DNA of 64,000 nucleotides from Candidatus Paceibacter sp. (GTDB lineage: Bacteria > Patescibacteriota > Minisyncoccia > Phycocordibacterales > GCA-2747955), in contig JABACC010000007.1 of the NCBI GenBank assembly GCA_014237915.1, forward strand, positions 1,446 to 65,445, given 5' to 3'. A program made the position numbers and the translations under genes. Shown one piece after another: positions 4,035 through 33,761 of the stretch (the stretch's first letter is position 1; each line of letters begins with the position of its first letter). The notes below the pieces were generated by a model. It ran no database searches and was not told the origin of the DNA. It saw nothing but the letters and a program-made list of their open reading frames with translations.

Positions 4035-4037
4035 TTT

Positions 4038-4361
4038 ATGTCAGAAAGGTTAGATAAAGTTTCAAAACTTATTAAAAAAAATGCTGGGGATTTTATCTCT
4101 CAGCAAAACAATAAAACGAGTCTTATTAGCATTACTAGAGTTGATGTTTCAAAGGATTTAAAAAATTCAAATATTTATATTTCTGTTTTTCCTGAAAAAT
4201 CAGAAGAGTCTGCTCTAAATTTTTTAAAAAGAAAAAGAAAAGATTTTAGAGATTTTTTTAAAGCTAATTCAAAAATTAGAATTGTGCCATTTTTTGATTT
4301 TGTTGTAGATGCGGGAGAGAAAAACAGAATTTTAGTGGAAGAGATTTTAAGAAAAAAATAA
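4038..4361 (+). CDS. rbfA: Ribosome-binding factor A
   Basis: 107 aa. Starts 3 nt after the infB stop. RbfA-like pattern (V..V..S.DL..A..Y.S) and classic infB-rbfA synteny. Confidence 0.65.
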   Translation: MSERLDKVSKLIKKNAGDFISQQNNKTSLISITRVDVSKDLKNSNIYISVFPEKSEESALNFLKRKRKDFRDFFKANSKIRIVPFFDFVVDAGEKNRILVEEILRKK

Positions 4362-4426
4362 AAAAGCCCTAAAAGGCTTTTGCGAAGGCTCGAGGCAAAA
4401 CCCTCGAGCCAAAAATATTTTTTGAT

Positions 4427-4609
4427 TTAGGTTTTGAAAAAATATTGTTCAAGTTTTTTCAGAGCCTTCCAGAACGTCACTACAGCAAGGGTCCCAATAA
4501 TAACCCAGAACCATATAATAGACGCAAAGTGGGAAAAAGTTATCCCCACTAATAATTGAAACTCGGAACTAAAAAATGAAAATATTTCCATTTTTTTATC
4601 CTTTCTCAC
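4427..4609 (-). CDS. Small hydrophobic protein (hypothetical)
   Basis: 60-aa ORF with one or two predicted TM helices. No recognisable motif. Confidence 0.2.
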   Translation of the reverse strand: MRKDKKMEIFSFFSSEFQLLVGITFSHFASIIWFWVIIGTLAVVTFWKALKKLEQYFFKT

Positions 4610-4727
4610 AGTTTGTTCCCCGCTATTTTAATTATATTATTTTTTTTAAAAAAGTCAAAGAAAATATTTACTTTTTCCACAACTTTTCCAATTTTTATTT
4701 AAAAAAAAACCATCAAGTTTTGCAAGT

Positions 4728-4770
4728 TTTTTTGAGTGGATTTTGCTGAAGGCAAAATCCACTCAAAAAA
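4728..4770. terminator. Palindromic GNRA-loop hairpin (family member 2), probable bidirectional terminator
   Basis: tttttttgagtggattttgc-tgaag-gcaaaatccactcaaaaaa. T-run upstream and A-run downstream make the whole element palindromic. Confidence 0.45.
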
Positions 4771-4783
4771 TATAAAAATAAAT

Positions 4784-5047
4784 TTAATTTTTAAGAGAGT
4801 TTAAAAGATTTAATTTTTCTTCCCTTTCAAGATCTGTTAAAGTTTTTTTTTCTTCTTGTAAATTTTCCAAAACTTCTTTTTTTTCTGTTTTTGTTTTTGG
4901 AATAAAAACTTCTTCTGTTTTTTCAACCACCCCTTCGACAATTTCTTTTTTTTCTACCTTTAAATCAAAATTAATAAAAAAAATAGAAAGAACTATTAAT
5001 ATAAAAAGTATTATAAAAAAAATATAAATTATTTTTCTTCTATGCAT
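4784..5047 (-). CDS. Hypothetical membrane-anchored protein (C-terminal coiled-coil, charged)
   Basis: 87 aa. N-terminal TM helix followed by a K/E-rich segment. Confidence 0.3.
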   Translation of the reverse strand: MHRRKIIYIFFIILFILIVLSIFFINFDLKVEKKEIVEGVVEKTEEVFIPKTKTEKKEVLENLQEEKKTLTDLEREEKLNLLNSLKN

Positions 5048-8187: not shown

Positions 8188-8288
8188 AAATAAAATTATT
8201 TTAAAAAAAATAAAAAATTTTTTTAGAAAATTTTTAATAAAAACAAACAAAATACTTATAAAGTATTTTTTTTGTTATAATATTTTTA

Positions 8289-10240: not shown

Positions 10241-13200
10241 ATGGAAAAAGAATTTTTTGGTGAGAAAATAATAAAAACCCCCGAGCAAGATAAAGAATTT
10301 TTTAATACTAATTTAAATTTAAACTCTCAAGAAAAATATAATTCTTCTTTTGGAAACTTAAACGAAAAAAAAGCTGAAGCTGTTGCTCGCGATGTTTTGG
10401 AAAAATATCCAAAAGAGGCTATAAGTTTAGCTTCTCCTGAATATTTAAATAAAAAAAATAGTGCAGAAGCCATCGTTTTAAAACTTTCTCCAGATGAAGA
10501 TGATAAAAAAATGGAAGAATTTCTATCTTTAATTAATAAGGTTGGAATTTTAAACACAATTAATGCAATTGAAAAAACAGAATCTTTCCACATTAAAGAT
10601 GATTTTCACAGATTTTTAGTTCAGTATTTAAAATCTGGATATCAACCAAAAAAATTAAAAGAAAAAGAGCCGTTTTTTATTTCTTTAAAAAGAACTTTAT
10701 TTAAAATTCAAATCCCAAATTCTGCAGAAGAGGAAGATAAAAATAAAAATTTAAAAGAATTACTTTCTTCAATGGAACAATTTTTTTCTGGAATGTTTGC
10801 TGTTTCTTCTGCTGAGGAAGAAAATTATTTTTCTTTAGAAATCGCACTGGCGCAAAACTCAGACGAAGTTGATTTTTACTGTGCCATTCCAGACGGAAAA
10901 GAAAATATTTTTAAAAATCAGCTTTTAGCAGTTTTTCCAAAAGCCAAAATTTTAGAAGCCAGTGATGACTACAATATTTTCAATAAAAAAAAACTTGTAG
11001 CAGGGTCTTTTGCAAAATTAAAAAAAAATGATTTTTTTCCTCTAACAACTTATAAAAATTTAGACTATGATCCTTTAAATTTAATCATTCAAGCTTTTTC
11101 TAATTTAAAAAAAGAGGAAGGCGCTGCCATTCAGATTAATTTAAAAACTCCGAAAAAACCTTTTTCAGAAAAAGTTAGAAAAGCTATAAAACAAGTAGAC
11201 GAAGGAAAAGATGTAAACGAAATAGTCTCTAAAAAAACTTCTTTTTTAGTAGATTTAAATAATAAAATTTACAATACTTTTTTAGCCTCAAATAAAAATG
11301 AAGAAAAATCAGGCTCAAGTGAAGAAAAAAATTTTTTCTTAGAGCAATTAAAAGAAAAAAATTCTTCTTCTGTTTTTGAAGCCAATATAAATATTGTCTC
11401 GGCTGGAGAAACAGAGCGGGGAGCTTTGCAAATTCTTTCTGCCATTGAAGCTGCTTTTATGCAGTTTGAAAATCCTGCTGGGAACAGTCTTTTTTTTGAA
11501 AAAGTTGATGGAAAAAAATTACAAAAATTAATTAAAAATTTTACTTATAGAATTTTTGATAAAAAAAATATTTTAAATTTAAATATTTCTGAACTTTCAT
11601 CTTTTTTTCATTTTCCTAAAAAAACTTTGGAAGCAGGAGAAACCCTGTCTTCAGGAGCCAGTGTTTCTTCTGGAGTAGACTTAAAATTAAAGAAAATTTC
11701 AGAAGAAGCTTTGGAAGATTTTCAAGGCTCAAGTTTTTCTGCTCCAGAAAAAAAAGTAGAAAATGAAAAAGTAGAAGCAAAAAATTTTCCTTCGGAAAAT
11801 TTTTCATCTCAAAAAGACAATAATTTAAAAAATATTTCTGAAGATAATTTTCAAGAAAAAGAAAATGAACTTTCTTATAGTTTGGGGAAGGTTGATGATT
11901 TTGAAGAAAAAATTTCAAAAAAAAGTTTTGAGGAAGAGAAAAAAAGGAATGATAATTATGAAAAATTTCAAGAAAAAAAACCAGAAGAAAAAATAAACTT
12001 TGAGAGCGAAAAAATTGAAAAACCTGAAGAGGAATTTTTCCCACAAAAAAAATCAACAGGAAAAATTTTACTTGGAATAAACGAGCACCAAGGAGAAGAA
12101 ACAAAAATTTTTATGAATGAAATCGATAGAATGAGACACCTTTATGTTATTGGGCAAACAGGAACAGGAAAAACAACTCTTTTAAAAAATGCCATAATTC
12201 AAGATATTGAAAATGGAGAAGGGGTTTGCTTTATTGATCCTCACGGCTCAGATATTGAAGATATTTTGAAAAATATTCCGCCAGAACGAGCAAAAGATGT
12301 TGTTTATTTTGATCCATCTGATATGAAAAAAGTTGTTGGTTTAAATATGCTTGAATATGACAAAAATTTTCCCGAGCAAAAAACTTTTGTTGTTGACGAA
12401 ATGCTCTCTATTTTTAATAAACTTTTCGATATGAAAGCAACAGGAGGCCCAATGTTTGAACAATATTTTAGAAACGCTGTAATGCTCACCATTGAAGATC
12501 CAGAATCAGGCTCAACCCTTTTAGATGTTTCAAGGGTTTTGTCTGACTCTGAATTTAGAGAAATGAAATTATCAAAATCTAAAAATTTAATTACAAACCA
12601 ATTTTGGCAAAAAATTGCCCAACAGGCGCAAGGAGAGGCAAGCCTTGAAAATATTGTTCCCTACATAACTTCTAAATTTGATAATTTTTTATCAAATGAC
12701 ATTATGAGACCAATAATTGCTCAGCAAAAATCATCTTTAAATTTTAGAAAAATAATGGACGAGAAAAAAATTCTTCTTGTAAATTTATCAAAAGGAAGAT
12801 TGGGCGAGCTAAACGCTCATCTTTTAGGGCTTATTATTGTTGGAAAAATTTTAATGGCTGCTTTATCTAGGGTTGATTCTGATATAAAAAATCTCCCTCC
12901 TTTTTATCTTTATATAGACGAGTTTCAAAATATTACAACTGATTCAATTTCTCAAATTTTGTCTGAGGCAAGAAAATACAAACTTTCTTTAAATATTGCT
13001 CACCAATATATTTCTCAAATTGATGAAGATATAAAAAATGCTGTTTTTGGAAATGTGGGATCTTTGGCTGTTTTTCGTGTTGGCTCTGAGGATGCAGAAT
13101 TTTTGGAAAAACAATTTTTACCAACATTTTCTAGTAAAGATATTATTGGGCTTAAAAATCACAATGCTTATATAAAATTACTTGTTGGGGGAGAGCCAGT

Positions 13201-13348
13201 TAAACCTTTTAATATAAAAACTCTGGCACCAGAAGAAGGGTCAGAGCTTAATTTAATTAGAGCAAAAGAAATTTCTTCAGAAAAATATGGTAGAGAAAAA
13301 GCTCTCGTTGATAGAGAAATTGAAGAAAAATTTAGACAATTGATTTAA
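10241..13348 (+). CDS. Conjugation/T4SS-type P-loop ATPase (VirB4/TrbE- or VirD4/TraG-family) with a roughly 600-aa N-terminal non-ATPase region
   Basis: Walker A YVIGQTGTGKTT closely followed by CFIDPHGSD (the IDP(K/H)GE motif of the HerA/VirB4/TraG clade). Walker B FYLYIDEF, then EARKYKLSLNIAHQ and VFRVGSEDAEFL, reminiscent of TraG/TraD C-terminal motifs. No searches run. Confidence 0.55.
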   Translation: MEKEFFGEKIIKTPEQDKEFFNTNLNLNSQEKYNSSFGNLNEKKAEAVARDVLEKYPKEAISLASPEYLNKKNSAEAIVLKLSPDEDDKKMEEFLSLINKVGILNTINAIEKTESFHIKDDFHRFLVQYLKSGYQPKKLKEKEPFFISLKRTLFKIQIPNSAEEEDKNKNLKELLSSMEQFFSGMFAVSSAEEENYFSLEIALAQNSDEVDFYCAIPDGKENIFKNQLLAVFPKAKILEASDDYNIFNKKKLVAGSFAKLKKNDFFPLTTYKNLDYDPLNLIIQAFSNLKKEEGAAIQINLKTPKKPFSEKVRKAIKQVDEGKDVNEIVSKKTSFLVDLNNKIYNTFLASNKNEEKSGSSEEKNFFLEQLKEKNSSSVFEANINIVSAGETERGALQILSAIEAAFMQFENPAGNSLFFEKVDGKKLQKLIKNFTYRIFDKKNILNLNISELSSFFHFPKKTLEAGETLSSGASVSSGVDLKLKKISEEALEDFQGSSFSAPEKKVENEKVEAKNFPSENFSSQKDNNLKNISEDNFQEKENELSYSLGKVDDFEEKISKKSFEEEKKRNDNYEKFQEKKPEEKINFESEKIEKPEEEFFPQKKSTGKILLGINEHQGEETKIFMNEIDRMRHLYVIGQTGTGKTTLLKNAIIQDIENGEGVCFIDPHGSDIEDILKNIPPERAKDVVYFDPSDMKKVVGLNMLEYDKNFPEQKTFVVDEMLSIFNKLFDMKATGGPMFEQYFRNAVMLTIEDPESGSTLLDVSRVLSDSEFREMKLSKSKNLITNQFWQKIAQQAQGEASLENIVPYITSKFDNFLSNDIMRPIIAQQKSSLNFRKIMDEKKILLVNLSKGRLGELNAHLLGLIIVGKILMAALSRVDSDIKNLPPFYLYIDEFQNITTDSISQILSEARKYKLSLNIAHQYISQIDEDIKNAVFGNVGSLAVFRVGSEDAEFLEKQFLPTFSSKDIIGLKNHNAYIKLLVGGEPVKPFNIKTLAPEEGSELNLIRAKEISSEKYGREKALVDREIEEKFRQLI

Positions 13349-16289: not shown

Positions 16290-17978
16290 ATGTTGGAATT
16301 TAAAGATTCAAAATCAATGCAAAGATTTAGAAAACTCAAGGCAAATAATGCAGAAAGAATTATTTCAGTCCTTGCTAAAAAATATGGAATTTCATATGTA
16401 AATTTAACAAATGTTTCTATAAATACAGACGCTTTAAGGCTTATTTCTGAGGAAACCGCAAGGGCTACAAAAATCGCAGGCTTTGAAATTAAAGGAAGAA
16501 AAATTTATTTAGCGGTAATTTCGCCATTTCCCGAAGAGATTCAAATGGAAATTGAAAAATTAAAAGCAAAAAAATATGAGGTTGTTTTATTTATGGCTTC
16601 AGAAAAATCTTTAGAAAAAGCTTGGTCTCGTTATGGAGATATTTCTTACGCTGTAAAAACTGAAAAAGGAGTTATCGATATTTCTTCTATTGAAATCGAA
16701 GATGTTTTAAATGATTTAAAAAATATTGACTCAGCTAAAAAAATTATTGATCAAGCTCTAGCTTCAACCAAATCTTATAGAATTTCAAAAGTTATAGAGC
16801 TTATTTTATATTCTGCAGATGCTCTTGGAGCTTCAGATATCCATATTGAGCCAGAAGAAAAAAATTGCAGGTTGAGGTTTAGAGTTGATGGAATTTTAAC
16901 AAATATAACTTTTTTAGACTTACAAACTTACAACAGAATTTTATCTAGAATAAAAATTACATCAGGAATGAAATTAAATATAAAACAATCAGCTCAAGAC
17001 GGGAGATTTTCTATAAAAATGAAAGAGTCAAAATTAGAAATTAGAGTCTCCTCAGTTCCAAATCCATACGGAGAATCTATTGTTTTAAGGCTTTTAGATC
17101 CAGATTCAATTTCAGTTTCAATTGAGCATTTAGGAATGTTTTCGTATTTTAGAGAAATAATGCAAGAACAAATAAAAAGGCCAAATGGAATGATTTTAAA
17201 TACCGGCCCAACTGGATCTGGAAAATCAACAACTCTTTTTGCTTTTTTGAAAAAAATTCAAAATCCAAGTATAAAAATAATGACAATTGAAAACCCAGTC
17301 GAATATCATGTTCCGGGGATTGTTCAAACTCAAGTAAACAGAGAAAAAGGTTACGGATTTTCAGAAGGGTTAAGAGCTGCCCTAAGACAAGACCCAGATG
17401 TGGTGATGATAGGTGAGATCAGAGACAAAGAAACAGCAAACGTTTCTGCAAACGCAGCGCTTACGGGGCATTTAGTTTTATCAACTTTACATACAAACTC
17501 AGCCGCAGCTTCTTTTTCTAGAATTTTAGATTTAGGAGTAAACCCAAAAATTTTATCAACAGCTGTTAATTTAATTATTGCTCAAAGACTTGTCAGGAGG
17601 CTCTGCACGCACTGCAAAAGAGAAACATCTTTTATAGAAATTGATGGAAAAACAAGAGAAATTTTAGAAAAAGTTTATGATGGAATTGGTGATATTGAGA
17701 AAAAAACAGGCGAAAAAATTTTAAAAGAAAAAATTTTTGAACCAGCTGGCTGTGAAAAATGTAACAACACAGGTTATAGGGGTAGAGTTGGAGTTTTTGA
17801 AGCAATTTTAATGGATAATAAATTAGAAGAGATTTTAAAAACTTCCCCAACGGAAAAAGAGATTAAAGAGGGCACCAAACATCAAAATATTTTATTTTTA
17901 AAAGAAGATGCAGTTTTAAAAGTTTTAAATGGAACAACAAGCACCGAAGAGATTTTTAGAGTAATTGATTTTTATTAA
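16290..17978 (+). CDS. pilB: Type IV pilus assembly / type II secretion ATPase, GspE/PilB family
   Basis: Walker A ILNTGPTGSGKSTT. Asp box and His box (VMIGEIRD ... LVLSTLHTNSAAASFSRI). Tetracysteine motif CTHCK...CEKCNNTGYRGRVGVFE. N-terminal GSPII_E_N-like domain. Confidence 0.9.
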   Translation: MLEFKDSKSMQRFRKLKANNAERIISVLAKKYGISYVNLTNVSINTDALRLISEETARATKIAGFEIKGRKIYLAVISPFPEEIQMEIEKLKAKKYEVVLFMASEKSLEKAWSRYGDISYAVKTEKGVIDISSIEIEDVLNDLKNIDSAKKIIDQALASTKSYRISKVIELILYSADALGASDIHIEPEEKNCRLRFRVDGILTNITFLDLQTYNRILSRIKITSGMKLNIKQSAQDGRFSIKMKESKLEIRVSSVPNPYGESIVLRLLDPDSISVSIEHLGMFSYFREIMQEQIKRPNGMILNTGPTGSGKSTTLFAFLKKIQNPSIKIMTIENPVEYHVPGIVQTQVNREKGYGFSEGLRAALRQDPDVVMIGEIRDKETANVSANAALTGHLVLSTLHTNSAAASFSRILDLGVNPKILSTAVNLIIAQRLVRRLCTHCKRETSFIEIDGKTREILEKVYDGIGDIEKKTGEKILKEKIFEPAGCEKCNNTGYRGRVGVFEAILMDNKLEEILKTSPTEKEIKEGTKHQNILFLKEDAVLKVLNGTTSTEEIFRVIDFY

Positions 17979-18603: not shown

Positions 18604-19134
18604 ATGTTTGTTGATCCTAAAAAAGTTTTAGAACAAATAGAAATTTTAGAAGGCACTAATGTGGCCGATTTTGGAGCAGGCTCTGGTTTTTATACAAAGC
18701 TTCTTTCAGAAAAAGTTGGACCAAGCGGAAATGTTTTTTCTGTTGAGTTAAACAAAGAGATAAGTCAAAAATTAGCACAAGAGCTGCAAGGAGAAAATTA
18801 TAGAAATATAAATTTTTTAATTTCTGATTTAGAGAAAAAAAATTCTTTAAAAATTGAAAATGAAAAAATTTCCCTGGTGGTTGCTTCTTTTATGTTGTTT
18901 CAAATAAACGATAAAAATTCTTTTGCTGAAGAGGTAAAGAGAGTTTTAATTTCAAAAGGCAGAATTTTGGTAATCGATTGGAAAGATTCTTTTTCTGGAA
19001 TTGGCCCAAACGAAAATCTTGTTTTTTCTGAAAATAAAGCCTTAAAGCTTTTTGAAACTTTTGATTTTAAAGTTGAAAAAAAACTTGATTTGGGAAAATA
19101 CGCTTACGGAATTTTATTTAGAAAAATTAATTAA
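18604..19134 (+). CDS. Class I SAM-dependent methyltransferase
   Basis: Motif I VADFGAGSGFYT. Post-I acidic residue (VFSVE). Motif IV-like LVVASFML. 176 aa. Confidence 0.6.
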   Translation: MFVDPKKVLEQIEILEGTNVADFGAGSGFYTKLLSEKVGPSGNVFSVELNKEISQKLAQELQGENYRNINFLISDLEKKNSLKIENEKISLVVASFMLFQINDKNSFAEEVKRVLISKGRILVIDWKDSFSGIGPNENLVFSENKALKLFETFDFKVEKKLDLGKYAYGILFRKIN

Positions 19135-19143: not shown

Positions 19144-20448
19144 ATGAAAAAAAAAATAAGTATCTTTCAAATAATTCTTTTAATTTTTTTTGGGGTAACC
19201 GGACTTTTTGGATTTATTGCATTTACAAACTACAGCCCAAGCGGAAATACAGAAACAGAAAATTTAGGGCAAATGCAAATCTGGGGAACTTTAGATGAAG
19301 ATATTTTTAATGAAGGACTTTCTTTTTTGAAAAATTTAGATGAGGGATATTCAAAAGTTTCTTATGTTCAAAAAAGCGAAGAGAGTTTTAATCAAGAATT
19401 TTTAGAAGCGGTAGCTGAAGGAAATATTCCAGACCTTATTTTAGTTTCTAATTCCACAATTTTTAATAATATAAATAAAATTTACAAAATTCCAACTTCT
19501 AGTATTTCTGAAAGTGTTTTTTTTGGGACTTTTTTAGAATCTTTTTCTCCTTTTTTTGAAGAAGATGGATCTTTGGCTATTCCTTTTTTAGCTGATCCAA
19601 TTGTAATGTATTACAACAAAGACCTTTTTTTCTCAGCAGGAATTCCAATCCCTCCTCAAGAATGGAAAGATTTTTTAGAAATGGCTCCTAAGATAAATAA
19701 AATAGATGAAAATAAAAATATTATAAAATCTATTGTGGCTTTTGGAGACGGAGATAACGTGGAAAATTTAAAAGAAATTTTGGCAACACTTTTTTTTCAA
19801 AGCGGAAATCCAATTATAAAAAAAGAAAACGGAATTTATAAATCAACTCTTTATGAAAATTCTTCTTTTCAAACCCCTTACGACGCACTAGATTTTTTCT
19901 CTTCTTTTTCAAATCCAAATGCTCCACAATATTCTTGGAATACCGCTATGCCAAACTCTAAAGATTTTTTCATAGGAGGCTCTTTAGGGGTTTATTTTGG
20001 TTATGCTTCAGAAATTTCTGATATAAGGTTAAAAAATCCAAACTTAAATTTTGATGTAACAGAAATTCCAAGAACATCTTCTGACTTAAGAAATAATGTA
20101 ATGTTAAAAACTTTTGCTTTTGCTATTCCAAAAAGCGCTAAAAATATAGAAAATTCTTCAATTCTTGCCTTTAGAATTGCAAATAAAGATATTTTAGAAA
20201 AAATTGAAGAAAAAACACAACTTCCGCCAGTGCGAAAAGAAATGGTTGCGAATTTAAAAGGTGATAAATATTTGGATATTTTTTATAAAGAAGCAATTTA
20301 CGGAAGCTCTTTTATGGATCCAGACGAAGAAAAAACTGACAAAATTTTTTCTGACCTTGTAAATAATTATATTAGTGGAAGATTTTCCGCCAAAGAATCT
20401 TTTTCTTCTGCTTCAAGATCTATTGACTTACTTCTTCTTGGCAAGTAA
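19144..20448 (+). CDS. Hypothetical secreted/membrane-anchored protein
   Basis: 434 aa. N-terminal hydrophobic anchor and a large extracytoplasmic domain. Vaguely solute-binding-protein-like; no firm motif. Confidence 0.3.
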   Translation: MKKKISIFQIILLIFFGVTGLFGFIAFTNYSPSGNTETENLGQMQIWGTLDEDIFNEGLSFLKNLDEGYSKVSYVQKSEESFNQEFLEAVAEGNIPDLILVSNSTIFNNINKIYKIPTSSISESVFFGTFLESFSPFFEEDGSLAIPFLADPIVMYYNKDLFFSAGIPIPPQEWKDFLEMAPKINKIDENKNIIKSIVAFGDGDNVENLKEILATLFFQSGNPIIKKENGIYKSTLYENSSFQTPYDALDFFSSFSNPNAPQYSWNTAMPNSKDFFIGGSLGVYFGYASEISDIRLKNPNLNFDVTEIPRTSSDLRNNVMLKTFAFAIPKSAKNIENSSILAFRIANKDILEKIEEKTQLPPVRKEMVANLKGDKYLDIFYKEAIYGSSFMDPDEEKTDKIFSDLVNNYISGRFSAKESFSSASRSIDLLLLGK

Positions 20449-20454: not shown

Positions 20455-21828
20455 TTGATAATGCATATTTTTTCTAATCTTAAAAAAATTTTAAAAATAT
20501 TTTTTCTTTCAGTTTTTTTTGTATTCAACTTTGTTTTTTCTGAAATTCCAGCAGAAGAAGTTTTTCAGTATTTTTTAGAAAACCCAGAAAAAATATTTGA
20601 AACTGAAGTTCAGGAAGTTTTTTATTCAGCTCAAAATTCTCGGTATGAAATTTCATCTTTAAGTAAAGACAACTCAAATATTTCTTATATTTTTTTTGCT
20701 GAAGAGCAAAGCGGAGAAATTTTTTTTCTTGATGGAGATGGAGAAAAAAAATACACAGGCTACACCGTCACAATTTTACAAGAAAATTCAGATAATGAAG
20801 ACGAAGATATTGAAGATAAAATTTTGGATAACTTAACAGATTTTGAAGGGGTTTACAACGATCAACTTGGGGGAAATAACAAAAGAAATAGTTTTGCTGA
20901 AAACGAAGATGAGGTTGAAAAAACTTTAACACCCTCAGAGCAATTAGAAGAAGCAAATAAAAGTTTGGAAGATACAGATGAAGATATTAAAGATTTAGCA
21001 ATTGAAACGTTAGAAAATTATAGTTCGCTAAAAGAATTTGTACAGTTTAAAGAAACTTTAGATGAGGACGAAGATGGACTTTCTCCTAACTCGGGTACTG
21101 ATCTTTACAGAGACATACTTGAAGATTATTTAGCAAGCGAAGACGGAAAAGAAAAAATCCAAGATCTTTTTGAAAAAAGTTCTGTAGAAGATATTGAAGA
21201 ATTTGTCGATAAGTTTTTTATAGAAAATCCAAATTTAACTAATACTGAAAAAGAAAATTGGATATTTTATCTAGAAGAGTTAAAAGAAGTTGATGAGCAA
21301 AGAGAAATAAGAAAAGCTGAAAATTTCAGCGCTCCAGAAATTAATGAAGATGGGCTAAGTAATTTTGTAGAAGCCGGCCTAAAGGCTGTTTTGAGTGATT
21401 CTCAAGAAGGACGAGGGTCAGAAGAAGGAGATGGCCAAGATCCTAACTGCTATAAATATGACGAAAAAGGGAATCCAGTAAATGATACCAGCAGGGGATA
21501 TGAAAGAGGGCTTGTGAAATATGATCCAGTATGTGATAAAAATACTAAAGGATTTGATGGTTTAATAATGACAATAAATGCGGTCACTAGTTTTGTTACA
21601 GGTATTGCTATTTTTTTATTTGTCGTTACCTTAATTTGGGCAGGAGGAATTTTAATGTTTCAAGGATCAAGTACCGGAGGAAGAGATAAAGCAAAAAAAA
21701 TGATAAACGGGGCAGTTATTGGAATATTTTTCATATTAGGAGCAACATTTATTGTAAGCTCGATTTTTTCTGTTTTCGGATTAGAAGATGAAGATTTAAT
21801 CGAAGGGAGTGTTGAAATATCTCAATAG
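20455..21828 (+). CDS. Secreted acidic protein with C-terminal VirB2/TrbC-like two-helix pilin module (long-form paralog)
   Basis: 457 aa. Signal peptide, roughly 330-aa D/E-rich region, then a C-terminal module (AVTSFVTGIAIFLFVVTLIWAGGILMFQGSSTGGRDKAKKMINGAVIGIFFILGATFIVSSIFSVFG) matching the downstream small paralogs. Confidence 0.4.
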   Translation: MIMHIFSNLKKILKIFFLSVFFVFNFVFSEIPAEEVFQYFLENPEKIFETEVQEVFYSAQNSRYEISSLSKDNSNISYIFFAEEQSGEIFFLDGDGEKKYTGYTVTILQENSDNEDEDIEDKILDNLTDFEGVYNDQLGGNNKRNSFAENEDEVEKTLTPSEQLEEANKSLEDTDEDIKDLAIETLENYSSLKEFVQFKETLDEDEDGLSPNSGTDLYRDILEDYLASEDGKEKIQDLFEKSSVEDIEEFVDKFFIENPNLTNTEKENWIFYLEELKEVDEQREIRKAENFSAPEINEDGLSNFVEAGLKAVLSDSQEGRGSEEGDGQDPNCYKYDEKGNPVNDTSRGYERGLVKYDPVCDKNTKGFDGLIMTINAVTSFVTGIAIFLFVVTLIWAGGILMFQGSSTGGRDKAKKMINGAVIGIFFILGATFIVSSIFSVFGLEDEDLIEGSVEISQ

Positions 21829-21873
21829 ATAAATTTGTTTTTTCTTTTTTTTAGCTTATAATATATTAATATC

Positions 21874-22314
21874 ATGAATCAAATTTTTTCAAAAAAATAT
21901 TTATTTTTTCTAATAATCCCTTTTTTATTTTCTATTTATTTTGTTACTTTTTCTTATAGTGCAGAATCTTGCGCTGGAGATTTTGAGTGTTTACAAAACC
22001 CATTAAAAGATAGCAATATTGGCTCAATTTCAGATTTAATTTCCACAATTTTAAATTTAATAATGATTTTAGCCGTTCCTTTTATAGTTATCGCTATAGT
22101 TTACTCAGGTTTTCTATTTATTCAAGCTCAAGGAAATCCAGAAAAAATAAAAACAGCTAGAAGTTTTTTACTTTGGTCCCTTGTTGGAGCTGGTATTGTT
22201 CTGGGTGCAAATGTTATTTATACCGTCATGGAAGATACATTTAAAAAATTTATTGCAGAAGAGGGTATAGAAAAAATAGAAGAAAAAAATTTAATAGAAG
22301 ATTATTATGTTTAA
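21874..22314 (+). CDS. VirB2/TrbC-like pilin candidate (paralog 2)
   Basis: 146 aa. Signal peptide, hydrophobic helix (LIMILAVPFIVIAIVYSGFLFI), short basic loop (QAQGNPEKIKTARS), second helix (FLLWSLVGAGIVLGANVIY). Confidence 0.45.
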   Translation: MNQIFSKKYLFFLIIPFLFSIYFVTFSYSAESCAGDFECLQNPLKDSNIGSISDLISTILNLIMILAVPFIVIAIVYSGFLFIQAQGNPEKIKTARSFLLWSLVGAGIVLGANVIYTVMEDTFKKFIAEEGIEKIEEKNLIEDYYV

Positions 22315-22663
22315 AAAAAAACAATTTAAAATATTTTTTTTGTTTTTATTAATTCCCTTTTTTTCTTTTTCAGCCAGCTTTTCAGAATTAGTAGACACAA
22401 TTTTTGTCGGAAGTTTAATTAAAGGTTTTGTTGGTTTAATTTTTTCTCTTTCTTTTCTATTTTTTTTATGGAAAGCCTTGCAGGTTATTTTAAACTTTGC
22501 TTCTTCAAAAAGAGGAGAATATTTAAAAGGGCTTTTTTTCAGTATTTTTCTTTTATTTGTAATGTTTTCAATTTGGTCTTTGGTAAACATTGTTTTAAGC
22601 ACTAATTTAAAAACAGGAACAGGATCTTCCGAAGATGTTATTTTTGATAAAATTAAATTTTAA
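22307..22663 (+). CDS. VirB2/TrbC-like pilin candidate (paralog 3)
   Basis: 118 aa. Same signal, helix, K/R loop, helix layout (…FLFFLWKALQVILNFASSKRGEYLKGLFFSIFLLFVMFSIWSLVN). Confidence 0.45.
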   Translation: MFKKKQFKIFFLFLLIPFFSFSASFSELVDTIFVGSLIKGFVGLIFSLSFLFFLWKALQVILNFASSKRGEYLKGLFFSIFLLFVMFSIWSLVNIVLSTNLKTGTGSSEDVIFDKIKF

Positions 22664-22771
22664 ATAAATTTTAAATAAATTTTTAACCCTTCAAATTCTT
22701 TAATCTTTAATTTTGACTTTATTTATTTTTTTTGATATAAAGGTATTATTAATAAGTAAATTTATTTTAAT

Positions 22772-23116
22772 ATGAAAAAAATTTTATTAACTTTGTCAGG
22801 GATTTCAGTTTTACCTGTTTTAGCTTTAGCTGATAATGGAATTGAAGAACTTATAAACACATTAGGAGAATTAATTCAAAGCGCTTCTACTGTTATTTTT
22901 GCTCTTGCAGCTCTTGTTTTCTTTTGGTCTTTAATTACCTACTTATGGGGAGCTGAAGAAAAAAAAGAAGGTGCTACAAAAGGAATTACTTTAAGTATCG
23001 TAGTTTTGTTTATAATGTTTTCAATTTGGGGAATTATTCAAATCCTTCAAGAAACAGTAGATGTTGATGGAGACGACTCAATAGATGTTCCAGAGTTTCC
23101 TGCTTTAAAATCTTAA
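22772..23116 (+). CDS. VirB2/TrbC-like pilin candidate (paralog 4)
   Basis: 114 aa. Cleavable signal (…LPVLALA). Helix 1 STVIFALAALVFFWSLITYLWGA, loop EEKKEGATKG, helix 2 ITLSIVVLFIMFSIWGIIQIL. Confidence 0.5.
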   Translation: MKKILLTLSGISVLPVLALADNGIEELINTLGELIQSASTVIFALAALVFFWSLITYLWGAEEKKEGATKGITLSIVVLFIMFSIWGIIQILQETVDVDGDDSIDVPEFPALKS

Positions 23117-23139
23117 AATAAAATAGTTTTAATTTAACT

Positions 23140-23421
23140 ATGGATAAAGTTGCCAAAATAATTCAAATTTTTGTTACAGAAATTTTAAATCCAATTATTG
23201 TAATTTTGATTTCTCTTTCTGTTGTTTATTTTTTTTGGGGAATGATGGTTTTTATTTTAAATTCTGACGATGAAACAAAAAGAACAGAAGCTAAATCTCA
23301 CATTTTTTGGAGCATTATAGGATTTGTTATTATTTTTGGAGTTTGGGGGATATTAAATTTTGTTGTTTTCAGTATTTATGATTTAACAAACCCAACCTCT
23401 GTTTCAGCAGCAGAAGCTTAA
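23140..23421 (+). CDS. VirB2/TrbC-like pilin candidate (paralog 5)
   Basis: 93 aa. Helix 1 …VVYFFWGMMVFILNS, loop DDETKRTEAKS, helix 2 HIFWSIIGFVIIFGVWGILNFVVF. A terminator hairpin (aaaaagcccgaagggctttttt) follows at about 23445-23470. Confidence 0.45.
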   Translation: MDKVAKIIQIFVTEILNPIIVILISLSVVYFFWGMMVFILNSDDETKRTEAKSHIFWSIIGFVIIFGVWGILNFVVFSIYDLTNPTSVSAAEA

Positions 23422-23534
23422 ATTTAAAAAATTAAATTTAAATAAAAAAGCCCGAAGGGCTTTTTTATTTAAATAACTTAAGATAAATTTGACAGGCATG
23501 TTATAATTTTAAAATCCTAAAATTTAGGATAAAA

Positions 23535-26250: not shown

Positions 26251-29200
26251 ATGGCAAATCGATCTTTTAAAATTTTTTTAACTTTAGTATTTTTTTTAAC
26301 ACCTTTTATTTCTTTTGGGGCTGATATTTATCTTCAAAAAGATAATGCTTTATGGTCTGATCCCACAGCTTGGAGTGGAGGAGTTTTACCAACAAGTTCC
26401 GATAATGTTTATTTAAAAAAAGAGGACGGAACGGAGTTTGATAAAATTACAATTGATTCTGTCGCAACCTATTTATCTATGGATGCTTCAAACATTAAAG
26501 AAATTGATGTAAAGTATAATTTATATAGATCAATAGAAGCGCCAAATTCCATTGTAAATTTTTACAATGGAAGCAACCAAATAGCATCATCTAATTTTAA
26601 AATAAAAGCCAAAGAAATATATTTTAAAGAAGGCACCGTAGAAATTATTCGCTATCCTTATTTTGAGGCAGATAAAATAGTAGTAGAGGAGAATGCTAGT
26701 ATTTATATTTCTATAACCGCGTTAGGTTATTATAATTCTATAGAAATAAAAGGAGACTTAATTCATAATGGAAAATTTTTTGGAGTAAGGGATTTTGATA
26801 TAAATCTCGATGGAAGTTTTATTAATAATGGAGAGATGGAAGATGTTCATCACTTTTATATTTCAAAAAATATTGAAAACAATTCAGTTTTACCAGATGA
26901 TTTTTATTTTCGGTATAAAACAAGCACATCAAAAAATCACCCAGTTGAAATAAAAGGTTCTGAAAAAGTTTCCTTAATTGTGACAAATGATTCAAACAAT
27001 ATTTTTTATTTTCATGATTCCGTTGATCTTAAAAATTTTTATTCTTATTATGATTCATCAGTTATAGACACAGAAAATAGTTTAAGTATTTATCTTGAAG
27101 ATGGAAAAAGTTTTAAAGCAGAAAAAGTTTATGGTCATAACGTATATTTTTTAAACAATAATAATTTTCATTTAGAATCATACGGCTCTATTACTTTTTC
27201 TCCGTATCGACTTCCAAATATTTATGCAGAAAAATCAACTGTGATTATTGAGGGAGATGGTATTTTTAAGGAAATAAAAGCAAAAGAAATATATTTTTTG
27301 GAAGGGATTCATGAGTATCCCTATAAAGGAAATACAATCACAGCGGATAATATAGTTTTAGAAGAGGGCTCATATATTCGTAATAATCAAGACCCGTACC
27401 AAAGTGGGGTAGAACCACTGACCATAAATGGAGATGTGAAAAACATGGGTTCCTTAGGAGATGATAACTTTATTATAAATGGAAACCTAGAAAATAATGG
27501 GAATGTAACAAACTTCAAGACAATTAAGGTGTATGGAGATGTATATAATAATGGTACATTTCAAGAAAACTCAAGAGGCGATTCTCCAACAATTTTTGCA
27601 TATGGAGATTTCTATAATTTTGGAACATACACATCACGAAACTTTTATTCCTATGGAAATATAGATTCAAGTGATATATTAGAAACAAGTATTAATCTAT
27701 ATGAAAACGTTGATGGAATCCATAAAAAGCTATCTTTTTCTGGAGATTATTTAAATTCAAATCTTATTATTAGGGAAAATATAACCTTAGATAAATCAGT
27801 AAGAGAAATTCCTTTTGATATTGAAGATGCAGAAATTATTGTAAATTCTAACTTCCTAGAGGTTCCAACTTTAAAGAATTCTAAACTTGAAGGAGATTTT
27901 GTTTTAGAAGTAAGAAATATTATAGACACTGAAGCTTTAAACGTAAAAGTTAGTGTAAGTAACGATATCGGAGGAAATATTTCGGTGAAAAATATAGTGC
28001 TCACTTCAGGAGATTTAGAAAATGGAGTAAACAGAGTAAGTGATGACGTGGTAAGGTTTGAAACGCTCGAGATAGAAGAGAATGTCTCTCTAGAGGTTTA
28101 CAAAAGGGCACCAAAACTTTATGGAAAAATTCTAAACAAGGGAACAATTTATGGCCTCGACAACTATCAAGAATTGTTATTCATTTTTGAGGATTTCAAC
28201 AATCAAGGAATAATTGAAAATGAAATATCTGTGTATTTTTATTTTAACAAAGAAATTAACCAAACCAATCAATATTTCATAAAAGAAGGAACTTCTTTTT
28301 CAGAACCATCAGTTGATGAAATAAAAACAGGATATTCAGCTAGGGTTGAGGACTATCTAAACCAAACAGACAAAGAATTTTCAATTTGGTATAAACTTCC
28401 AGAAGAATCCGAATGGAAAGTAAATTATTTTAATGTTGATTTTGAAATTCCAGAAATTGTTGTTCCTCCTCCAGAACCTGAAACTTTAGAATTTTCTTTT
28501 TCTAACATCGAAGATCATTTAAAAAACGAAGAAGTAGAAATTACACTAAGCGCTGCAAGGAATTTGCAAGATAGGGATTCTAAAGTAAGAAGAAAAGAAA
28601 TGTATTTTTATCTTTCTACAAACAAAGGAGATATTGTTTATCCTTCTGTTGTAACTTTTGCAGAAGATGGAGATTATTATGAAAAAGAAAAAACTTTTTC
28701 TATGAAAATAGATGAAGCAGAAAGTGATATTGAAATATATATTAAAGATAGTGAGGGAAATCTTTTAGGAACTTCAAAACCTTTTTCTGTAGTAGAGTCG
28801 GGAAAAGCTTATTTTAAATTTAGAGAGGATCATTATCATAGGTATGATTTGGACATAAAATTAGGAACAAAAGACTACTCTTTTGAATCCACAAAATCTA
28901 TAAATTTAATGGTTTTACCTTGCGATGAAAATCTCTCTGTTATACCAAAAGGTAATATTTTTATTCCAAGCGACACAGGCCTTATACATCAAGAATTTTT
29001 TTATCTACCAATACAAGTTAACATATCTTGCGACACAACAGATACGATAGAAATAGCAAAATCTATTCCCTACGAAAATTGGGTTTGTGAAGACTCAGAC
29101 AAAACCCCAGTTTTACTTTTACCGGGGATTATGGGCTCTGATACAAAATTTAACCTTTCTGTTTACCCTCAAATACCAAAAGATTCCCCTGCTTGGGATT

Positions 29201-30201
29201 CTGAAAAACTTGTTTTACATGATCCAGGACCAGCTAATTTTTCAGTAGGTTGGGAAAATCTTAAAGATGAGCTTAGGAGCGAAGGTTACAGAGGAGGTTG
29301 CAATATTATAGATGTTCCCTACGATTGGAGGTTAGAAATTCCAGAAATTAGAGATTTATACCTAATCCCTTGGATCGAAGAAGCAAAAAGACTAACAGGT
29401 AAAGATGAAGTTGATATTGTAGCTCATTCAATGGGCGGGCTTGTGGCCAGATCTTTTATTCAATCTTCAAAACATTTAAACGAAGTGAGAAATTTTGTAA
29501 TGGTAGGAACTCCAAACTCTGGCTCAGCCTCAACTTATCCTATCTGGGAAGGAGGGGATCCAATTTTAGTAGATAAAAATACTCAAGATTTATCAACTAT
29601 TGGAGGATATGTATCAAAGTATTTTTACACCAACACTATAAATAAAAATTATAAAAAAGTTATCGAAGATAAAGATTTATGCATTTGGGAATCAGGATTT
29701 TTACCTGCTCCAATTTATTGCAACAAAGAAAAAGTTTATGATTTTTTACATACATACTCTCCTTCTGTTGGAAACTTAATGCCAACATACCCCGGAGCTT
29801 TAAAAGATCATCTTAGCGAAGCAGATTTAAATATATCAGCTGAGCCAAATAATTTTCTTCTTGCTTTAAATAGTGGAGGAGATTACGGCAGAGATACATA
29901 TATTCACCCAGACGATATTAATAATAAAATATCAGGAGAGAGTATTCTTTTTTATGGAGATAATTTTGATACAATAGAAAATATAAAGGTAGATCAAAGC
30001 TTTTCTCATCAATTTTTGTATCAAGATGGAAAACCTTCTGGCCTAGATTTTATAATTAAAAATCAAGGAGACAAGACAGTTCCTAAAGTCTCAATACCGA
30101 TAGGTAATATTAATTTATCTTCTGATGTTTCAGATCAGGAACACGGGCGACTTATAAATGATTTAAAAGAAGAAATTGTTGAGTTTATTAATAATAATTA
30201 A
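26251..30201 (+). CDS. Giant secreted surface protein with C-terminal LCAT-like alpha/beta-hydrolase (phospholipase/acyltransferase) domain
   Basis: 1316 aa. N-terminal signal peptide (FLTPFISFGADIY). Roughly 900 aa of Asn/Gly/Tyr-rich repetitive beta-type sequence. C-terminal domain with PYDWR (the LCAT/PDAT-family YDWR motif), nucleophile elbow VAHSMGGLVAR (GxSxG), and downstream Asp/His candidates. Confidence 0.6.
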   Translation: MANRSFKIFLTLVFFLTPFISFGADIYLQKDNALWSDPTAWSGGVLPTSSDNVYLKKEDGTEFDKITIDSVATYLSMDASNIKEIDVKYNLYRSIEAPNSIVNFYNGSNQIASSNFKIKAKEIYFKEGTVEIIRYPYFEADKIVVEENASIYISITALGYYNSIEIKGDLIHNGKFFGVRDFDINLDGSFINNGEMEDVHHFYISKNIENNSVLPDDFYFRYKTSTSKNHPVEIKGSEKVSLIVTNDSNNIFYFHDSVDLKNFYSYYDSSVIDTENSLSIYLEDGKSFKAEKVYGHNVYFLNNNNFHLESYGSITFSPYRLPNIYAEKSTVIIEGDGIFKEIKAKEIYFLEGIHEYPYKGNTITADNIVLEEGSYIRNNQDPYQSGVEPLTINGDVKNMGSLGDDNFIINGNLENNGNVTNFKTIKVYGDVYNNGTFQENSRGDSPTIFAYGDFYNFGTYTSRNFYSYGNIDSSDILETSINLYENVDGIHKKLSFSGDYLNSNLIIRENITLDKSVREIPFDIEDAEIIVNSNFLEVPTLKNSKLEGDFVLEVRNIIDTEALNVKVSVSNDIGGNISVKNIVLTSGDLENGVNRVSDDVVRFETLEIEENVSLEVYKRAPKLYGKILNKGTIYGLDNYQELLFIFEDFNNQGIIENEISVYFYFNKEINQTNQYFIKEGTSFSEPSVDEIKTGYSARVEDYLNQTDKEFSIWYKLPEESEWKVNYFNVDFEIPEIVVPPPEPETLEFSFSNIEDHLKNEEVEITLSAARNLQDRDSKVRRKEMYFYLSTNKGDIVYPSVVTFAEDGDYYEKEKTFSMKIDEAESDIEIYIKDSEGNLLGTSKPFSVVESGKAYFKFREDHYHRYDLDIKLGTKDYSFESTKSINLMVLPCDENLSVIPKGNIFIPSDTGLIHQEFFYLPIQVNISCDTTDTIEIAKSIPYENWVCEDSDKTPVLLLPGIMGSDTKFNLSVYPQIPKDSPAWDSEKLVLHDPGPANFSVGWENLKDELRSEGYRGGCNIIDVPYDWRLEIPEIRDLYLIPWIEEAKRLTGKDEVDIVAHSMGGLVARSFIQSSKHLNEVRNFVMVGTPNSGSASTYPIWEGGDPILVDKNTQDLSTIGGYVSKYFYTNTINKNYKKVIEDKDLCIWESGFLPAPIYCNKEKVYDFLHTYSPSVGNLMPTYPGALKDHLSEADLNISAEPNNFLLALNSGGDYGRDTYIHPDDINNKISGESILFYGDNFDTIENIKVDQSFSHQFLYQDGKPSGLDFIIKNQGDKTVPKVSIPIGNINLSSDVSDQEHGRLINDLKEEIVEFINNN

Positions 30202-30203: not shown

Positions 30204-30539
30204 ATGAATATTATAGAAAAAATAAATATAAAATTAATATTGTTAACAATATATATATATATATATATAAATTTAGGCGGAGCTTATTTGGTATTTCAAT
30301 TTTCTAGAAGTTCTATGTGGGGTCAAGATTTTGACAATATTTTAAGTCATTTATTAGAAGTTCTAAATACTCTTTTTAACTTAATGTATTCTAACTTTTT
30401 AATATTTTTATTATTATTTACTTTTTCTTTTTTTCTTTCCAAGTTTTTCTTAAAAAAAGAAAATAAATTATATTATATTTTATTCCACATTTTAGCCTTA
30501 CCTGCATCTTTTTTTGGGTATTTTATTTTAGTTGTATAG
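30204..30539 (+). CDS. Small polytopic membrane protein (cassette paralog A); immunity-protein-like position
   Basis: 111 aa. Conserved N-terminus MNIIEKINIKLILLTIYIYIYI and C-terminus YILFHILALPASFFGYFILVV shared with the next ORF; middle diverged. Contains (AT)10 at 30249-30269. Confidence 0.4.
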   Translation: MNIIEKINIKLILLTIYIYIYINLGGAYLVFQFSRSSMWGQDFDNILSHLLEVLNTLFNLMYSNFLIFLLLFTFSFFLSKFFLKKENKLYYILFHILALPASFFGYFILVV

Positions 30540-30540: not shown

Positions 30541-30600
30541 TTAGTAAATGACTTAAAAGAAGAAATTGTTGAGTTTATTAATAATAATTAAATATGAATA
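30541..30600 (+). repeat. Junction repeat copy 2
   Basis: gttagtaaatgacttaaaagaagaaattgttgagtttattaataataattaaatatgaatattatag: duplicates the last roughly 50 nt of the giant CDS plus the start of the small gene. Confidence 0.8.
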
Positions 30601-30920
30601 TTATAGAAAAAATAAATATAAAATTAATATTATTAACAATATATATATATATATATATTAGTCTGGGGGGAGTTTTTGCAACAATGATATTTTCAGATTT
30701 TCGTATAGATGAATTAGTTACCGCTTTTTTTTATTCTTTTATTCCTTTTTTTATTTATATTTGGAGTAAACACTTTGTTATTTCTTTGATTTCGGTGATC
30801 ATCTCTTTTTCACTTGTTAAATTTAATATGATAAAAAAAATAAAAAAAATCTACATAATACTATTTCATATTTTAATTTTACCCCTTTCTTTTTTTGGGT
30901 ATTTTATTTTATTTGTATAG
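30594..30920 (+). CDS. Small polytopic membrane protein (cassette paralog B)
   Basis: 108 aa. Same conserved termini as paralog A with a different central segment. (AT)10 tract at 30639-30658. Confidence 0.4.
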   Translation: MNIIEKINIKLILLTIYIYIYISLGGVFATMIFSDFRIDELVTAFFYSFIPFFIYIWSKHFVISLISVIISFSLVKFNMIKKIKKIYIILFHILILPLSFFGYFILFV

Positions 30921-32236: not shown

Positions 32237-32770
32237 ATGAAAAAAGAAAAAATATTAGAAGAGCTTGCTTTAAAAATTATAAAAAAAGAAATAAGTAAAG
32301 ATGAAGTTGATATAGTGGCTCATTCAATGGGCGGGCTTGTGGCCAGATCTTTTATTCAATCTTCAAAACATTTAAACGAAGTGAGAAATTTTGTAATGGT
32401 AGGAACTCCAAACTCTGGCTCAGCCTCAACTTATCCTATCTGGGAAGGAGGGGATCCTATGGAAGTAGATATTTTACTAGGCGGAACTTTCGCTATCATT
32501 TTTTTTAACGAAGGAGATATATCGATGCTCAAATGGAATATTTTATATTTTTTGTTTACCATCTTTTGTGTTTTTCTATCTGTTAAAATGAAGAGTACTT
32601 CCATTTTATCTATTAATACATTATTTTTACTTTTATATATTTCTTATAATGTTAATGAATATTTTTCAAACTCCGTCAGCTTTCCTTTTTTGATCATCGT
32701 TTTAGGTTTTATTTTTTTACTTTTCGGATATCTTGCATTTCATTTTAATAAAAAATATATTAAAAACTAG
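32237..32770 (+). CDS. Orphan fragment: duplicated lipase active-site segment fused to a hydrophobic C-terminal region (possible pseudogene or recombination cassette)
   Basis: nt 32300-32460 are near-identical (one or two mismatches over about 160 nt) to nt 29401-29560 of the giant CDS. These encode EVDIVAHSMGGLVARSFIQSSKHLNEVRNFVMVGTPNSGSASTYPIWEGGDP. Flanks are unrelated; the C-terminal 100 aa are TM-rich. Confidence 0.35.
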   Translation: MKKEKILEELALKIIKKEISKDEVDIVAHSMGGLVARSFIQSSKHLNEVRNFVMVGTPNSGSASTYPIWEGGDPMEVDILLGGTFAIIFFNEGDISMLKWNILYFLFTIFCVFLSVKMKSTSILSINTLFLLLYISYNVNEYFSNSVSFPFLIIVLGFIFLLFGYLAFHFNKKYIKN

Positions 32771-32879: not shown

Positions 32880-33761
32880 ATGATAAATTTTAAAAATAAT
32901 TTTAAAAAAATATTTTATATATTTTTTTGTTTACCGGCAATGTCTTTTGCTTCTGACTTTTCTTTTTCTTTCCCTGGATTTGTTAACGGATATGTGGAAA
33001 ACCAAAATGGAGAAAAAGCCGGAATTTTTGATTTGGATATTTGGGAAGAAATTGAAGGATATGATTTATATTTAAGCACTGAAAACGGAAGCAGAATAAC
33101 CTTGAATGAAATTGAAGACGGAAATTATAAAATATTTTTACAAGCATATGAAGAAATTGGAGAATATGAAACAAGTATTTTATTTGTTAATGATTTAGGC
33201 GATGTAAATTATTATTCACAAAATCATTATTTAAAGACTGGAAGAAACATAGATCTTCTAAATTTTTCTATAGAAAACGGAGAACTTGTTCTAGGTAAAG
33301 AATTTTCTCCAGTTGACGGAGTGAAGATAGATTATAGAAGTGGCCAAGAATTTTTACTTTGGAATGAAGTAGCTGGAGCCATAGCTTATGATATTTTTAA
33401 AAAAATGCCCGGAGAGGAAATACAAAATTTATATTCTATATCTGGAACGGAAACCCAGCTTATGGTCACAACTCCAAAAAGTTCAGAGTTTTATATTTCT
33501 GCAGTTTTTTCTAGAGAAAGTGGAGTTAAAGAAAAATCAGTCTTACATTATGGATCTTTAGGAACTTATGCTCCTGGGAAAGATGACGACGAAGATTCTA
33601 TCTCTGATTACTGGGAAGATGTTATTGGAACAGACAAAAACAATCCAGACTCAGATGGAGACGGAGTGGGAGATTTGGAAGAGATTTTAGGGGGGACAGA
33701 CCCAACCGTTGCAGATGTTTGGGAAGAAATCGTTTTATTTTTTAAGAGACTTTTTAGTTAA
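32880..33761 (+). CDS. Secreted protein with C-terminal thrombospondin type-3-like Ca-binding repeats
   Basis: 293 aa. Signal peptide (…CLPAMSFASDF). C-terminal D-rich DxDxDG-type motifs (DDDEDSISDYWEDVIGTDKNNPDSDGDGVGDLEEILGGTDP). Confidence 0.4.
   Translation: MINFKNNFKKIFYIFFCLPAMSFASDFSFSFPGFVNGYVENQNGEKAGIFDLDIWEEIEGYDLYLSTENGSRITLNEIEDGNYKIFLQAYEEIGEYETSILFVNDLGDVNYYSQNHYLKTGRNIDLLNFSIENGELVLGKEFSPVDGVKIDYRSGQEFLLWNEVAGAIAYDIFKKMPGEEIQNLYSISGTETQLMVTTPKSSEFYISAVFSRESGVKEKSVLHYGSLGTYAPGKDDDEDSISDYWEDVIGTDKNNPDSDGDGVGDLEEILGGTDPTVADVWEEIVLFFKRLFS

Follow-up and report, generated by a model that had tools for sequence, protein, structure and literature searches.

A conserved, ordered array of VirB2-like pilin genes in Candidatus Paceibacter, linked to a MalE-like binding protein and possibly specifying a heteromeric filament

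A 64,000 nt stretch of the Candidatus Paceibacter sp. genome (contig JABACC010000007.1, positions 1,446–65,445 of the forward strand; hereafter the window, numbered from its first nucleotide) carries an array of five small pilin-like genes, here named p1 to p5. The window has a G+C content of 28% and is gene-dense and compact, with nearly all genes on the + strand. It corresponds to almost the full length of a 66 kb metagenomic scaffold (ENA ERZ23487945, BUSC20-1 scaffold_178). A large part of bacterial diversity belongs to Patescibacteria, which live attached to other cells. To our knowledge, the only genetic screen in this group found a type IV secretion system (T4SS) and a pilin array to be essential.

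The five genes are consecutive open reading frames (ORFs) on the + strand (nt 20455/20461–23421) with intergenic gaps of −8 to +108 nt. The first, p1 (nt 20461–21828), codes for 455 aa when translated from the ATG chosen in public gene calls, or 457 aa from a TTG start at nt 20455, and consists of a signal peptide (aa ~1–27), a long acidic insert, a Cys pair and a helical hairpin of the PF18895 family (aa 365–438). It is unlikely to be an assembly artefact, being a single 1.37 kb open frame at 28% GC, with the same 455 aa product found on three deposited contigs. The second, p2 (nt 21874–22314, 146 aa), has a signal peptide, a C-x5-C pair, an NPL motif, a hairpin with an AQGN loop and an acidic tail. 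It is overlapped by 8 nt by p3 (nt 22307–22663, 118 aa; signal peptide and two helices), which is followed by p4 (nt 22772–23116, 114 aa) and p5 (nt 23140–23421, 93 aa). Hydropathy profiles and alignments reveal a core common to all five, in which a first helix, a short K/R-containing loop and a second helix are followed by a mostly acidic tail, while pairwise identity among them is only 14–26%.

A first-pass annotation, prepared from the sequence without database searches, had described five consecutive same-strand genes, each with a signal peptide, two hydrophobic helices around a short K/R loop, an FSIW-like end to helix 2 and a mature size of 60–70 aa, the layout of VirB2/TrbC-like T4SS pilins. 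The gene arrangement, the two helices with their loop and the pilin layout were all borne out, the last by profile searches and a confident AlphaFold hairpin (see below). The signal peptide claim stands for p1 to p4, which have N-terminal hydrophobic leaders of the Sec type, and fails for p5, which is leaderless and has two hydrophobic segments only. The remaining details needed correction: the FSIW motif is restricted to p3 and p4, where it lies midway along helix 2, is replaced by FGVW in p5 and is absent from p1 and p2, and the mature sizes are ~92–117 aa (p1, ~428 aa), with only the hairpin core being ~70 aa long.

Two genes lie immediately upstream on the same strand. The first (nt 18604–19134) specifies a cytoplasmic class I S-adenosylmethionine-dependent methyltransferase of 176 aa (Pfam Methyltransf_31/11/25) and begins the module. 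Next is a gene for a membrane-anchored, MalE-like family-1 solute-binding protein (nt 19144–20448, 434 aa; Pfam SBP_bac_1 and SBP_bac_8) that matches MBP1 (4r9f, E = 1e-15) and MalE structures in profile searches and is anchored by an N-terminal hydrophobic segment that lacks a lipobox Cys. Genes for an ABC permease or ATPase are absent beside it. Downstream of p5 is a likely intrinsic terminator (nt 23436–23474, no strand assigned), a G+C-cored palindromic hairpin (GCCCGAAGGGC) followed by a T-run (TTTTTT), which closes the operon. The palindrome has a perfect 18 bp stem with a GCCC/GGGC core and T-runs on both strands, and is likely to be a bidirectional terminator between the pilin operon and the grpE–dnaK genes located downstream, a promoter-like site being present ahead of grpE at nt 23478–23507. 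Because the gaps are short (9 nt between the methyltransferase and binding-protein genes, 12 nt between the latter and p1, and those within the array) and the only terminator is 3′ of p5, we infer that the methyltransferase gene through p5 are co-transcribed as a single unit.

Family membership was assessed against the Pfam gathering score of PF18895 (T4SS_pilin, 26.6 bits), which is exceeded by p1 (29.3 bits, aa 373–435), p2 (38.5), p4 (26.9) and p5 (43.2). The p3 protein falls below it (14.8 bits) yet scores 45.7 bits against a profile of middle-type pilins built from other genomes only, and BLASTp aligns it with p4 (51 bits) and with genes a4, b3 and c4 of other arrays (45–51 bits). Of the two families proposed for this check in the first-pass annotation, PF18895 is therefore passed by four of the five genes and PF04956 (TrbC/VirB2) by none. 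In addition, p5 passes the curated NCBIfam model NF045849 (Mbov_0395 family pilin-like conjugal transfer protein; 46.8 bits, cut-off 40). Searching with a profile of the five cores brought up 21 more proteins (84–132 aa), 20 of them annotated as PF18895; two matches carry names, ‘Patescibacteria group bacterium’ and ‘Candidatus Portnoybacteria’, both metagenome-assembled genomes. The occurrence of the nearest pilin homologues and of the same gene module in genomes bearing the first of these names, like the low G+C content and the one-strand layout, points to a probable Patescibacteria host, although a scan of a genome collection with GrpE gave no close relative, only a Clostridia metagenome-assembled genome at 30% identity. 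AlphaFold2 modelling of p5 from a 26-sequence alignment gave a helical hairpin (residues 2–40 and 45–83) with a mean predicted local distance difference test score (pLDDT) of 86.8, and the p1 hairpin (residues 365–438) was modelled at pLDDT 87–97. The five proteins are thus very probably genuine VirB2-like members of PF18895.

As the first-pass annotation had stated, none carries the class-III signal of type IV pilins. A regular expression for it (G-F/M-T/S-L-I/L-E) found no match in p1–p5, nor elsewhere in the window in any reading frame, which rules out identity as type IV pilins. Homologues of PilB (nt 16290–17978) and PilC (nt 60462–61670) are nonetheless present in the window, as also stated there, so the type IV pilins themselves are either encoded elsewhere or atypical.

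Comparison with arrays from other genomes shows that the five paralogues belong to distinct types. In all-against-all BLASTp searches, p1 scores far higher against the first gene of other arrays, and p2 against the second, than either does against the genes beside it; the counterparts of p3 and p4 are in the middle group, and that of p5 is the last gene. For p2, scores to genes a2, b2 and c2 are 64–79 bits, compared with 34 bits to the best neighbour in its own array, and its reciprocal best hits are the second genes of the arrays on contigs L003, L005 and L007. Type profiles built without any sequence from the window placed p1 in T1 (43.6 bits; next best at most 16), p2 in T2 (86.9; next best 36), and p3 and p4 in T3 (45.7 and 78.9; next best 23.5 and 38.9), while p5 is T6-like by its position and missing leader. 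The order in the window is T1, T2, T3, T3, T6. At least two Cys residues are present in 47 of 58 T1 members, an NP[LIFMV] motif in 47 of 70 T2 members and F[FIL]WG in 55 of 92 T3 members, and 27 of 30 T6 members from elsewhere are, like p5, leaderless with two hydrophobic segments only. The types are orthologous across genomes of 28–43% GC. At the DNA level the array is free of long near-identical repeats, the sole residual similarity being 70 nt at 73% between p3 and p4; together with the cross-genome BLASTp results this rules out recent tandem duplication or cassette recombination. The pilin types are ancient and probably non-redundant.

The gene order of the whole module is also conserved. 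On contigs L003 and L005 a methyltransferase gene, a binding-protein gene and then five or six pilin genes are arranged as in the window, and on L007 the pilin genes likewise follow the binding-protein gene, which is split by Ns. When metagenome contigs were scanned with the binding protein alone as bait, 80 loci were recovered, in which pilins were detected with profiles made from four arrays and the 21 database homologues. In 32 of the 38 loci with at least 2.5 kb of downstream sequence, the binding-protein gene is followed at 0–100 nt by an array of at least two pilin ORFs; equally long + strand upstream flanks gave two pilin hits in all. In 41 of 55 anchored loci, the binding-protein gene is preceded by an ORF homologous to the methyltransferase that ends within 200 nt of it. 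The usual order of the pilins, T1–T2–T3 (one to four copies)–T6, recurs in dozens of these loci, which had been found through the binding protein alone.

The p1 insert is a 335-residue segment (aa ~29–363) between the leader and the hairpin, with 26.9% D + E, 9.6% K + R and a pI of 4.05, which agrees with the long D/E-rich domain noted in the first-pass annotation. An exhaustive phmmer search of 1.84 billion representative proteins with the insert returned only itself, as did a word-indexed search with the whole of p1, while the C-terminal domain of p1 alone gave no match in the latter search. The insert matched no Pfam family and no known fold. AlphaFold predicts helices at residues 158–287 (pLDDT 66–85), and residues 46–155 are below 50; the insert was effectively modelled from a single sequence. 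Although its sequence is unique, it is not the only extension of its kind. In the metagenomic loci, ORFs of at least 190 aa are found among T1 (11 of 58) and T2 (6 of 70) members, and hardly at all in T3 (0 of 92) and T6 (1 of 30). N-terminal inserts of ~270–340 residues are also seen in loci L040 (acidic and D-rich), L045, L061 and L066, and three T1 genes have C-terminal extensions with SLT lytic transglycosylase (VirB1-like) domains: L038 (nt 8230–9333), L065 (nt 3303–4847, also with a He_PIG Ig-like domain) and L076 (nt 8397–9440). As the long ORFs are concentrated there, T1, and to a lesser extent T2, is the attachment place of lineage-specific extracellular modules. The T1–SLT fusions give indirect support to a wall-crossing, T4SS-like structure. 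As a separate observation, a 293 aa secreted protein specified within the window (nt 32880–33761), without a family match, ends in a D-rich, DSDGDGVGD-type motif that looks calcium-binding and resembles in flavour the D-rich insert of the extended L040 pilin.

Pilin arrays of this general type have been described before, so the locus adds no new kind of system to those reported from ultrasmall Patescibacteria. VirB2-like pilins were found in 1,948 Patescibacteria assemblies, with 441 arrays of 2–11 genes in 383 of them and a mean identity within arrays of 25% (Quinonero-Coronel et al. 2025, PMC12102498). That number, and the frequency of arrays among the binding-protein-anchored loci, contradict the first-pass view that such arrays are unusual. 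In Southlakia epibionticum ML1, a series of predicted pilins is located inside an essential T4SS cluster (Wang et al. 2023, PMC10633639). According to the tables of that report, SEML1_0014–0019 are six PF18895 proteins following a VirB6 homologue, and at least three of the six, SEML1_0017–0019, each scored as essential by transposon sequencing. A 2025 review describes the six-pilin array as essential, counts pilins of this kind as the only VirB2-like ones in monoderm T4SSs and speculates about a pilus that serves as a conduit. The array in the window shares with these published examples its tandem same-strand PF18895 genes (five here, 2–11 reported) of low mutual identity (~25%), a chromosomal location with no relaxase nearby and Sec-type leaders on most members. 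It differs in following genes for a methyltransferase and a MalE-like protein rather than VirB6/VirB4, in having no VirB4 within 64 kb and in possessing one member with a 335-residue orphan acidic insert. No mention of the fixed type order or the binding-protein linkage is found in PMC12102498, and no mention of the linkage of methyltransferase, MalE-like protein and ordered pilins, or of the T1 domain hotspot, was found in the literature searched.

In VirB2 and TraA pilins a long leader precedes two hydrophobic helices, and the basic loop between these faces the lumen and binds phospholipid in F and T pili. The leader, the two hydrophobic helices and the short basic loop are shared by the window pilins and the VirB2/TrbC/TraA family (PF04956), to which there are weak matches. 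In contrast to the diderm systems, the window has several distinct paralogues rather than one major pilin, comes from a monoderm host and lacks adjacent virB3/virB4 genes, and one pilin of its array lacks a leader while another has a large extracellular domain. Among monoderm proteins, the closest comparisons are Mbov_0395/MMCAP2_0565 of Mycoplasma integrative and conjugative elements (NF045849, the model passed by p5) and pLS20_p028 (NF045890), to the hairpin part of which p4 aligns. The latter is a long protein (377 aa model) with a pilin-like hairpin, as is p1. The p1, p2 and p4 proteins are below the cut-offs of these monoderm models. Both Mbov_0395 and pLS20_p028 are encoded by single genes in mobile-element transfer operons, whereas the window has five genes in a housekeeping neighbourhood. 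A parallel in logic is offered by type IV pili and type II secretion pseudopili, which also employ several divergent paralogues whose order within the operon is fixed, with one bulk subunit and a few specialised low-copy ones, some carrying extra domains. The p1–p5 proteins are nevertheless of an unrelated family, without a class-III signal and with a hairpin instead of a single helix plus globular head, and the assembly ATPases are different.

Taken together, the data are best explained by an operon of non-redundant VirB2-like pilins, of four ancient types, that are assembled into a heteromeric filament or stalk by a T4SS-type machine, a reading to which we assign a probability of about 0.55. 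The narrower proposal that p1–p5 form a T4SS-dependent extracellular filament is an even call. In the proposed scheme, p1–p4 would be exported by the Sec pathway and their signal peptides cleaved, while the leaderless p5 would insert as a hairpin. By analogy with VirB2 and TraA, all five would sit in the membrane with the basic loop on the cytoplasmic side and the N and C termini outside, and once polymerised they would turn these termini towards the surface of the filament. Assembly into a heteromeric filament or an envelope-spanning stalk would most likely be carried out by VirB4/VirB6-type machinery whose genes lie in another part of the genome. The duplicated T3 is the likely bulk subunit, with T1, T2 and T6 being specialised, perhaps as tip, initiator or adaptor. 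T1 would carry lineage-specific surface modules, which in the window is a fast-evolving, partly helical acidic domain that p1 may display outwards.

Several observations weigh against this filament reading. None of the five proteins reaches the PF04956 cut-off of 27.9 bits; the best is p1 (24.1 bits, E = 4e-5), and the other four are not listed among the matches. Structure searches return generic helical hairpins (best Foldseek E = 0.78), with the archaeal conjugation pilin 8dfu in 13th place (E = 2.3), so the fold is compatible with VirB2 but does not discriminate. The assignment of p5 is close, its scores to the T6 and T3 profiles being nearly equal (67.4 and 67.1 bits). Family searches detected no VirB4, VirB3 or recognisable VirB6 in the window, and no pilus has been reported for any Patescibacterial T4SS in the literature searched. 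At the metagenomic loci, neighbouring ORFs of at least 300 aa (n = 93, from 37 loci) belong most commonly to housekeeping families (S1, IF-2, ComM-like Mg-chelatase and SMC). The 25 commonest families include none of T4SS ATPases, so the argument for T4SS dependence is one from homology only. Lastly, an ORF of ~815–835 aa, GyrA in the cases checked, is retained further upstream in 19 loci, and the adjacency to the binding protein may in part reflect a general conservation of gene order.

The main rival explanation is that the hairpins stay resident in the membrane and, with the adjacent binding protein, form a translocon or a complex for uptake, working as an unconventional importer or channel without VirB4. 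The tight and widespread linkage to an orphan MalE-like protein without a nearby ABC permease would fit such a complex, as would the absence of T4SS ATPase families from the commonest neighbours and the weak matches to NF045849 and NF045890, which represent monoderm conjugation proteins not known to build pili. It is harder to reconcile with the homologous Saccharimonadia array, which lies inside a T4SS cluster and next to VirB6, or with the fusion of T1 pilins to SLT domains, which cut the cell wall and so suit a structure that crosses it; moreover, hairpins of two transmembrane helices acting as ABC-type permeases are without known precedent. A membrane-resident complex is accordingly considered unlikely, although it is the strongest competitor to a filament.

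The same linkage allows a more speculative proposal, in which the methyltransferase, the orphan MalE-like protein and the ordered pilins would be parts of one machine that captures host sugars or glycans for uptake, the binding protein being the receptor and the T1 module contacting or cutting the host envelope. The odds are rather long for this as a whole. If true, it would provide a concrete parts list for the proposed role of the Patescibacterial T4SS pilus as an uptake conduit. The pilins travel with a homologue of sugar-binding proteins and a methyltransferase, and one pilin type carries surface modules, including cell-wall hydrolases.

Antigenic or host-range variation, in which the array would hold interchangeable major pilins and the copy expressed would alter the filament surface, was suggested in the first-pass annotation and, by analogy with Bartonella and Anaplasma, in PMC12102498. 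The low identity between neighbouring pilins (14–26%) is in keeping with it, and the p1 insert evolves so fast that no homologue is detectable, as expected under diversifying selection. A set of variants would not, however, be expected to show types that are orthologous across genomes of widely differing base composition, in a fixed order and with different architectures (a Cys pair, an NPx motif, a leaderless last gene). Neither long near-identical DNA repeats nor invertible elements accompany the array, the layout is that of a single operon with one terminator, and at least three of the six Southlakia pilins were each scored as essential. Because of these ordered orthologous types, the lack of DNA cassettes and the Southlakia essentiality, the paralogues are better seen as having distinct roles in one assembly than as interchangeable variants, and variation of this kind is improbable. 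Fixed, ancient and non-equivalent paralogue types argue instead for a multi-component filament.

It is still less credible, indeed highly improbable, that p1–p5 are unrelated small membrane proteins (holin-like or generic two-helix proteins) that match the pilin model through hydrophobic composition, for while many weak Pfam matches to unrelated membrane families and a non-specific fold could be so explained, the curated cut-off of PF18895 is passed by four genes and that of a curated NCBIfam equivalog by one, nearly every homologue found by profile search is a PF18895 protein, and motifs and order are conserved in many genomes. The holin-like alternative, raised in the first-pass annotation, was checked directly: p1–p5 matched no holin family in Pfam at E ≤ 1 and no PHROG at E ≤ 0.01, and a holin or phage origin is ruled out.

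The sole T4SS-related ATPase in the window is a type IV coupling protein (T4CP)/TraD-like protein of 1035 aa (nt 10241–13348, +), encoded 7 kb upstream of the array and comprising DUF8128, a P-loop and TraG-D_C. It matches Pfam TraG-D_C with 26 bits (cut-off 22), and its match to NCBIfam SXT_TraD (E = 3e-16) is far below the cut-off of that model. The N-terminal half is long and charged, without an obvious transmembrane segment. Genes for T4CP/TraD-like ATPases are near-universal in Patescibacteria and seldom adjoin virB4, and a link between this ATPase and the pilin array is no more than putative. Further upstream, nt 5611–8187 code for an 858 aa protein that is polytopic in its N-terminal half and has a long C-terminal half that is charged and resembles a coiled coil. 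As a VirB6 candidate it gave no family match even at E ≤ 1, and it could be a diverged VirB6-like protein.

Other genes downstream of the array include one for a secreted protein of 1316 aa (nt 26251–30201) with an LCAT/lipase alpha/beta-hydrolase domain. An ORF of 177 aa situated 2 kb downstream of it (nt 32237–32770) contains an exact repeat of 54 residues from its catalytic region, fused to a hydrophobic tail, and looks like a recent partial duplication. Between them are two tandem genes (nt 30204–30539 and 30594–30920) for paralogous small polytopic membrane proteins that are identical over their first 22 residues and have no family match. They lie in the most AT-rich stretch of the window (20.5% GC).

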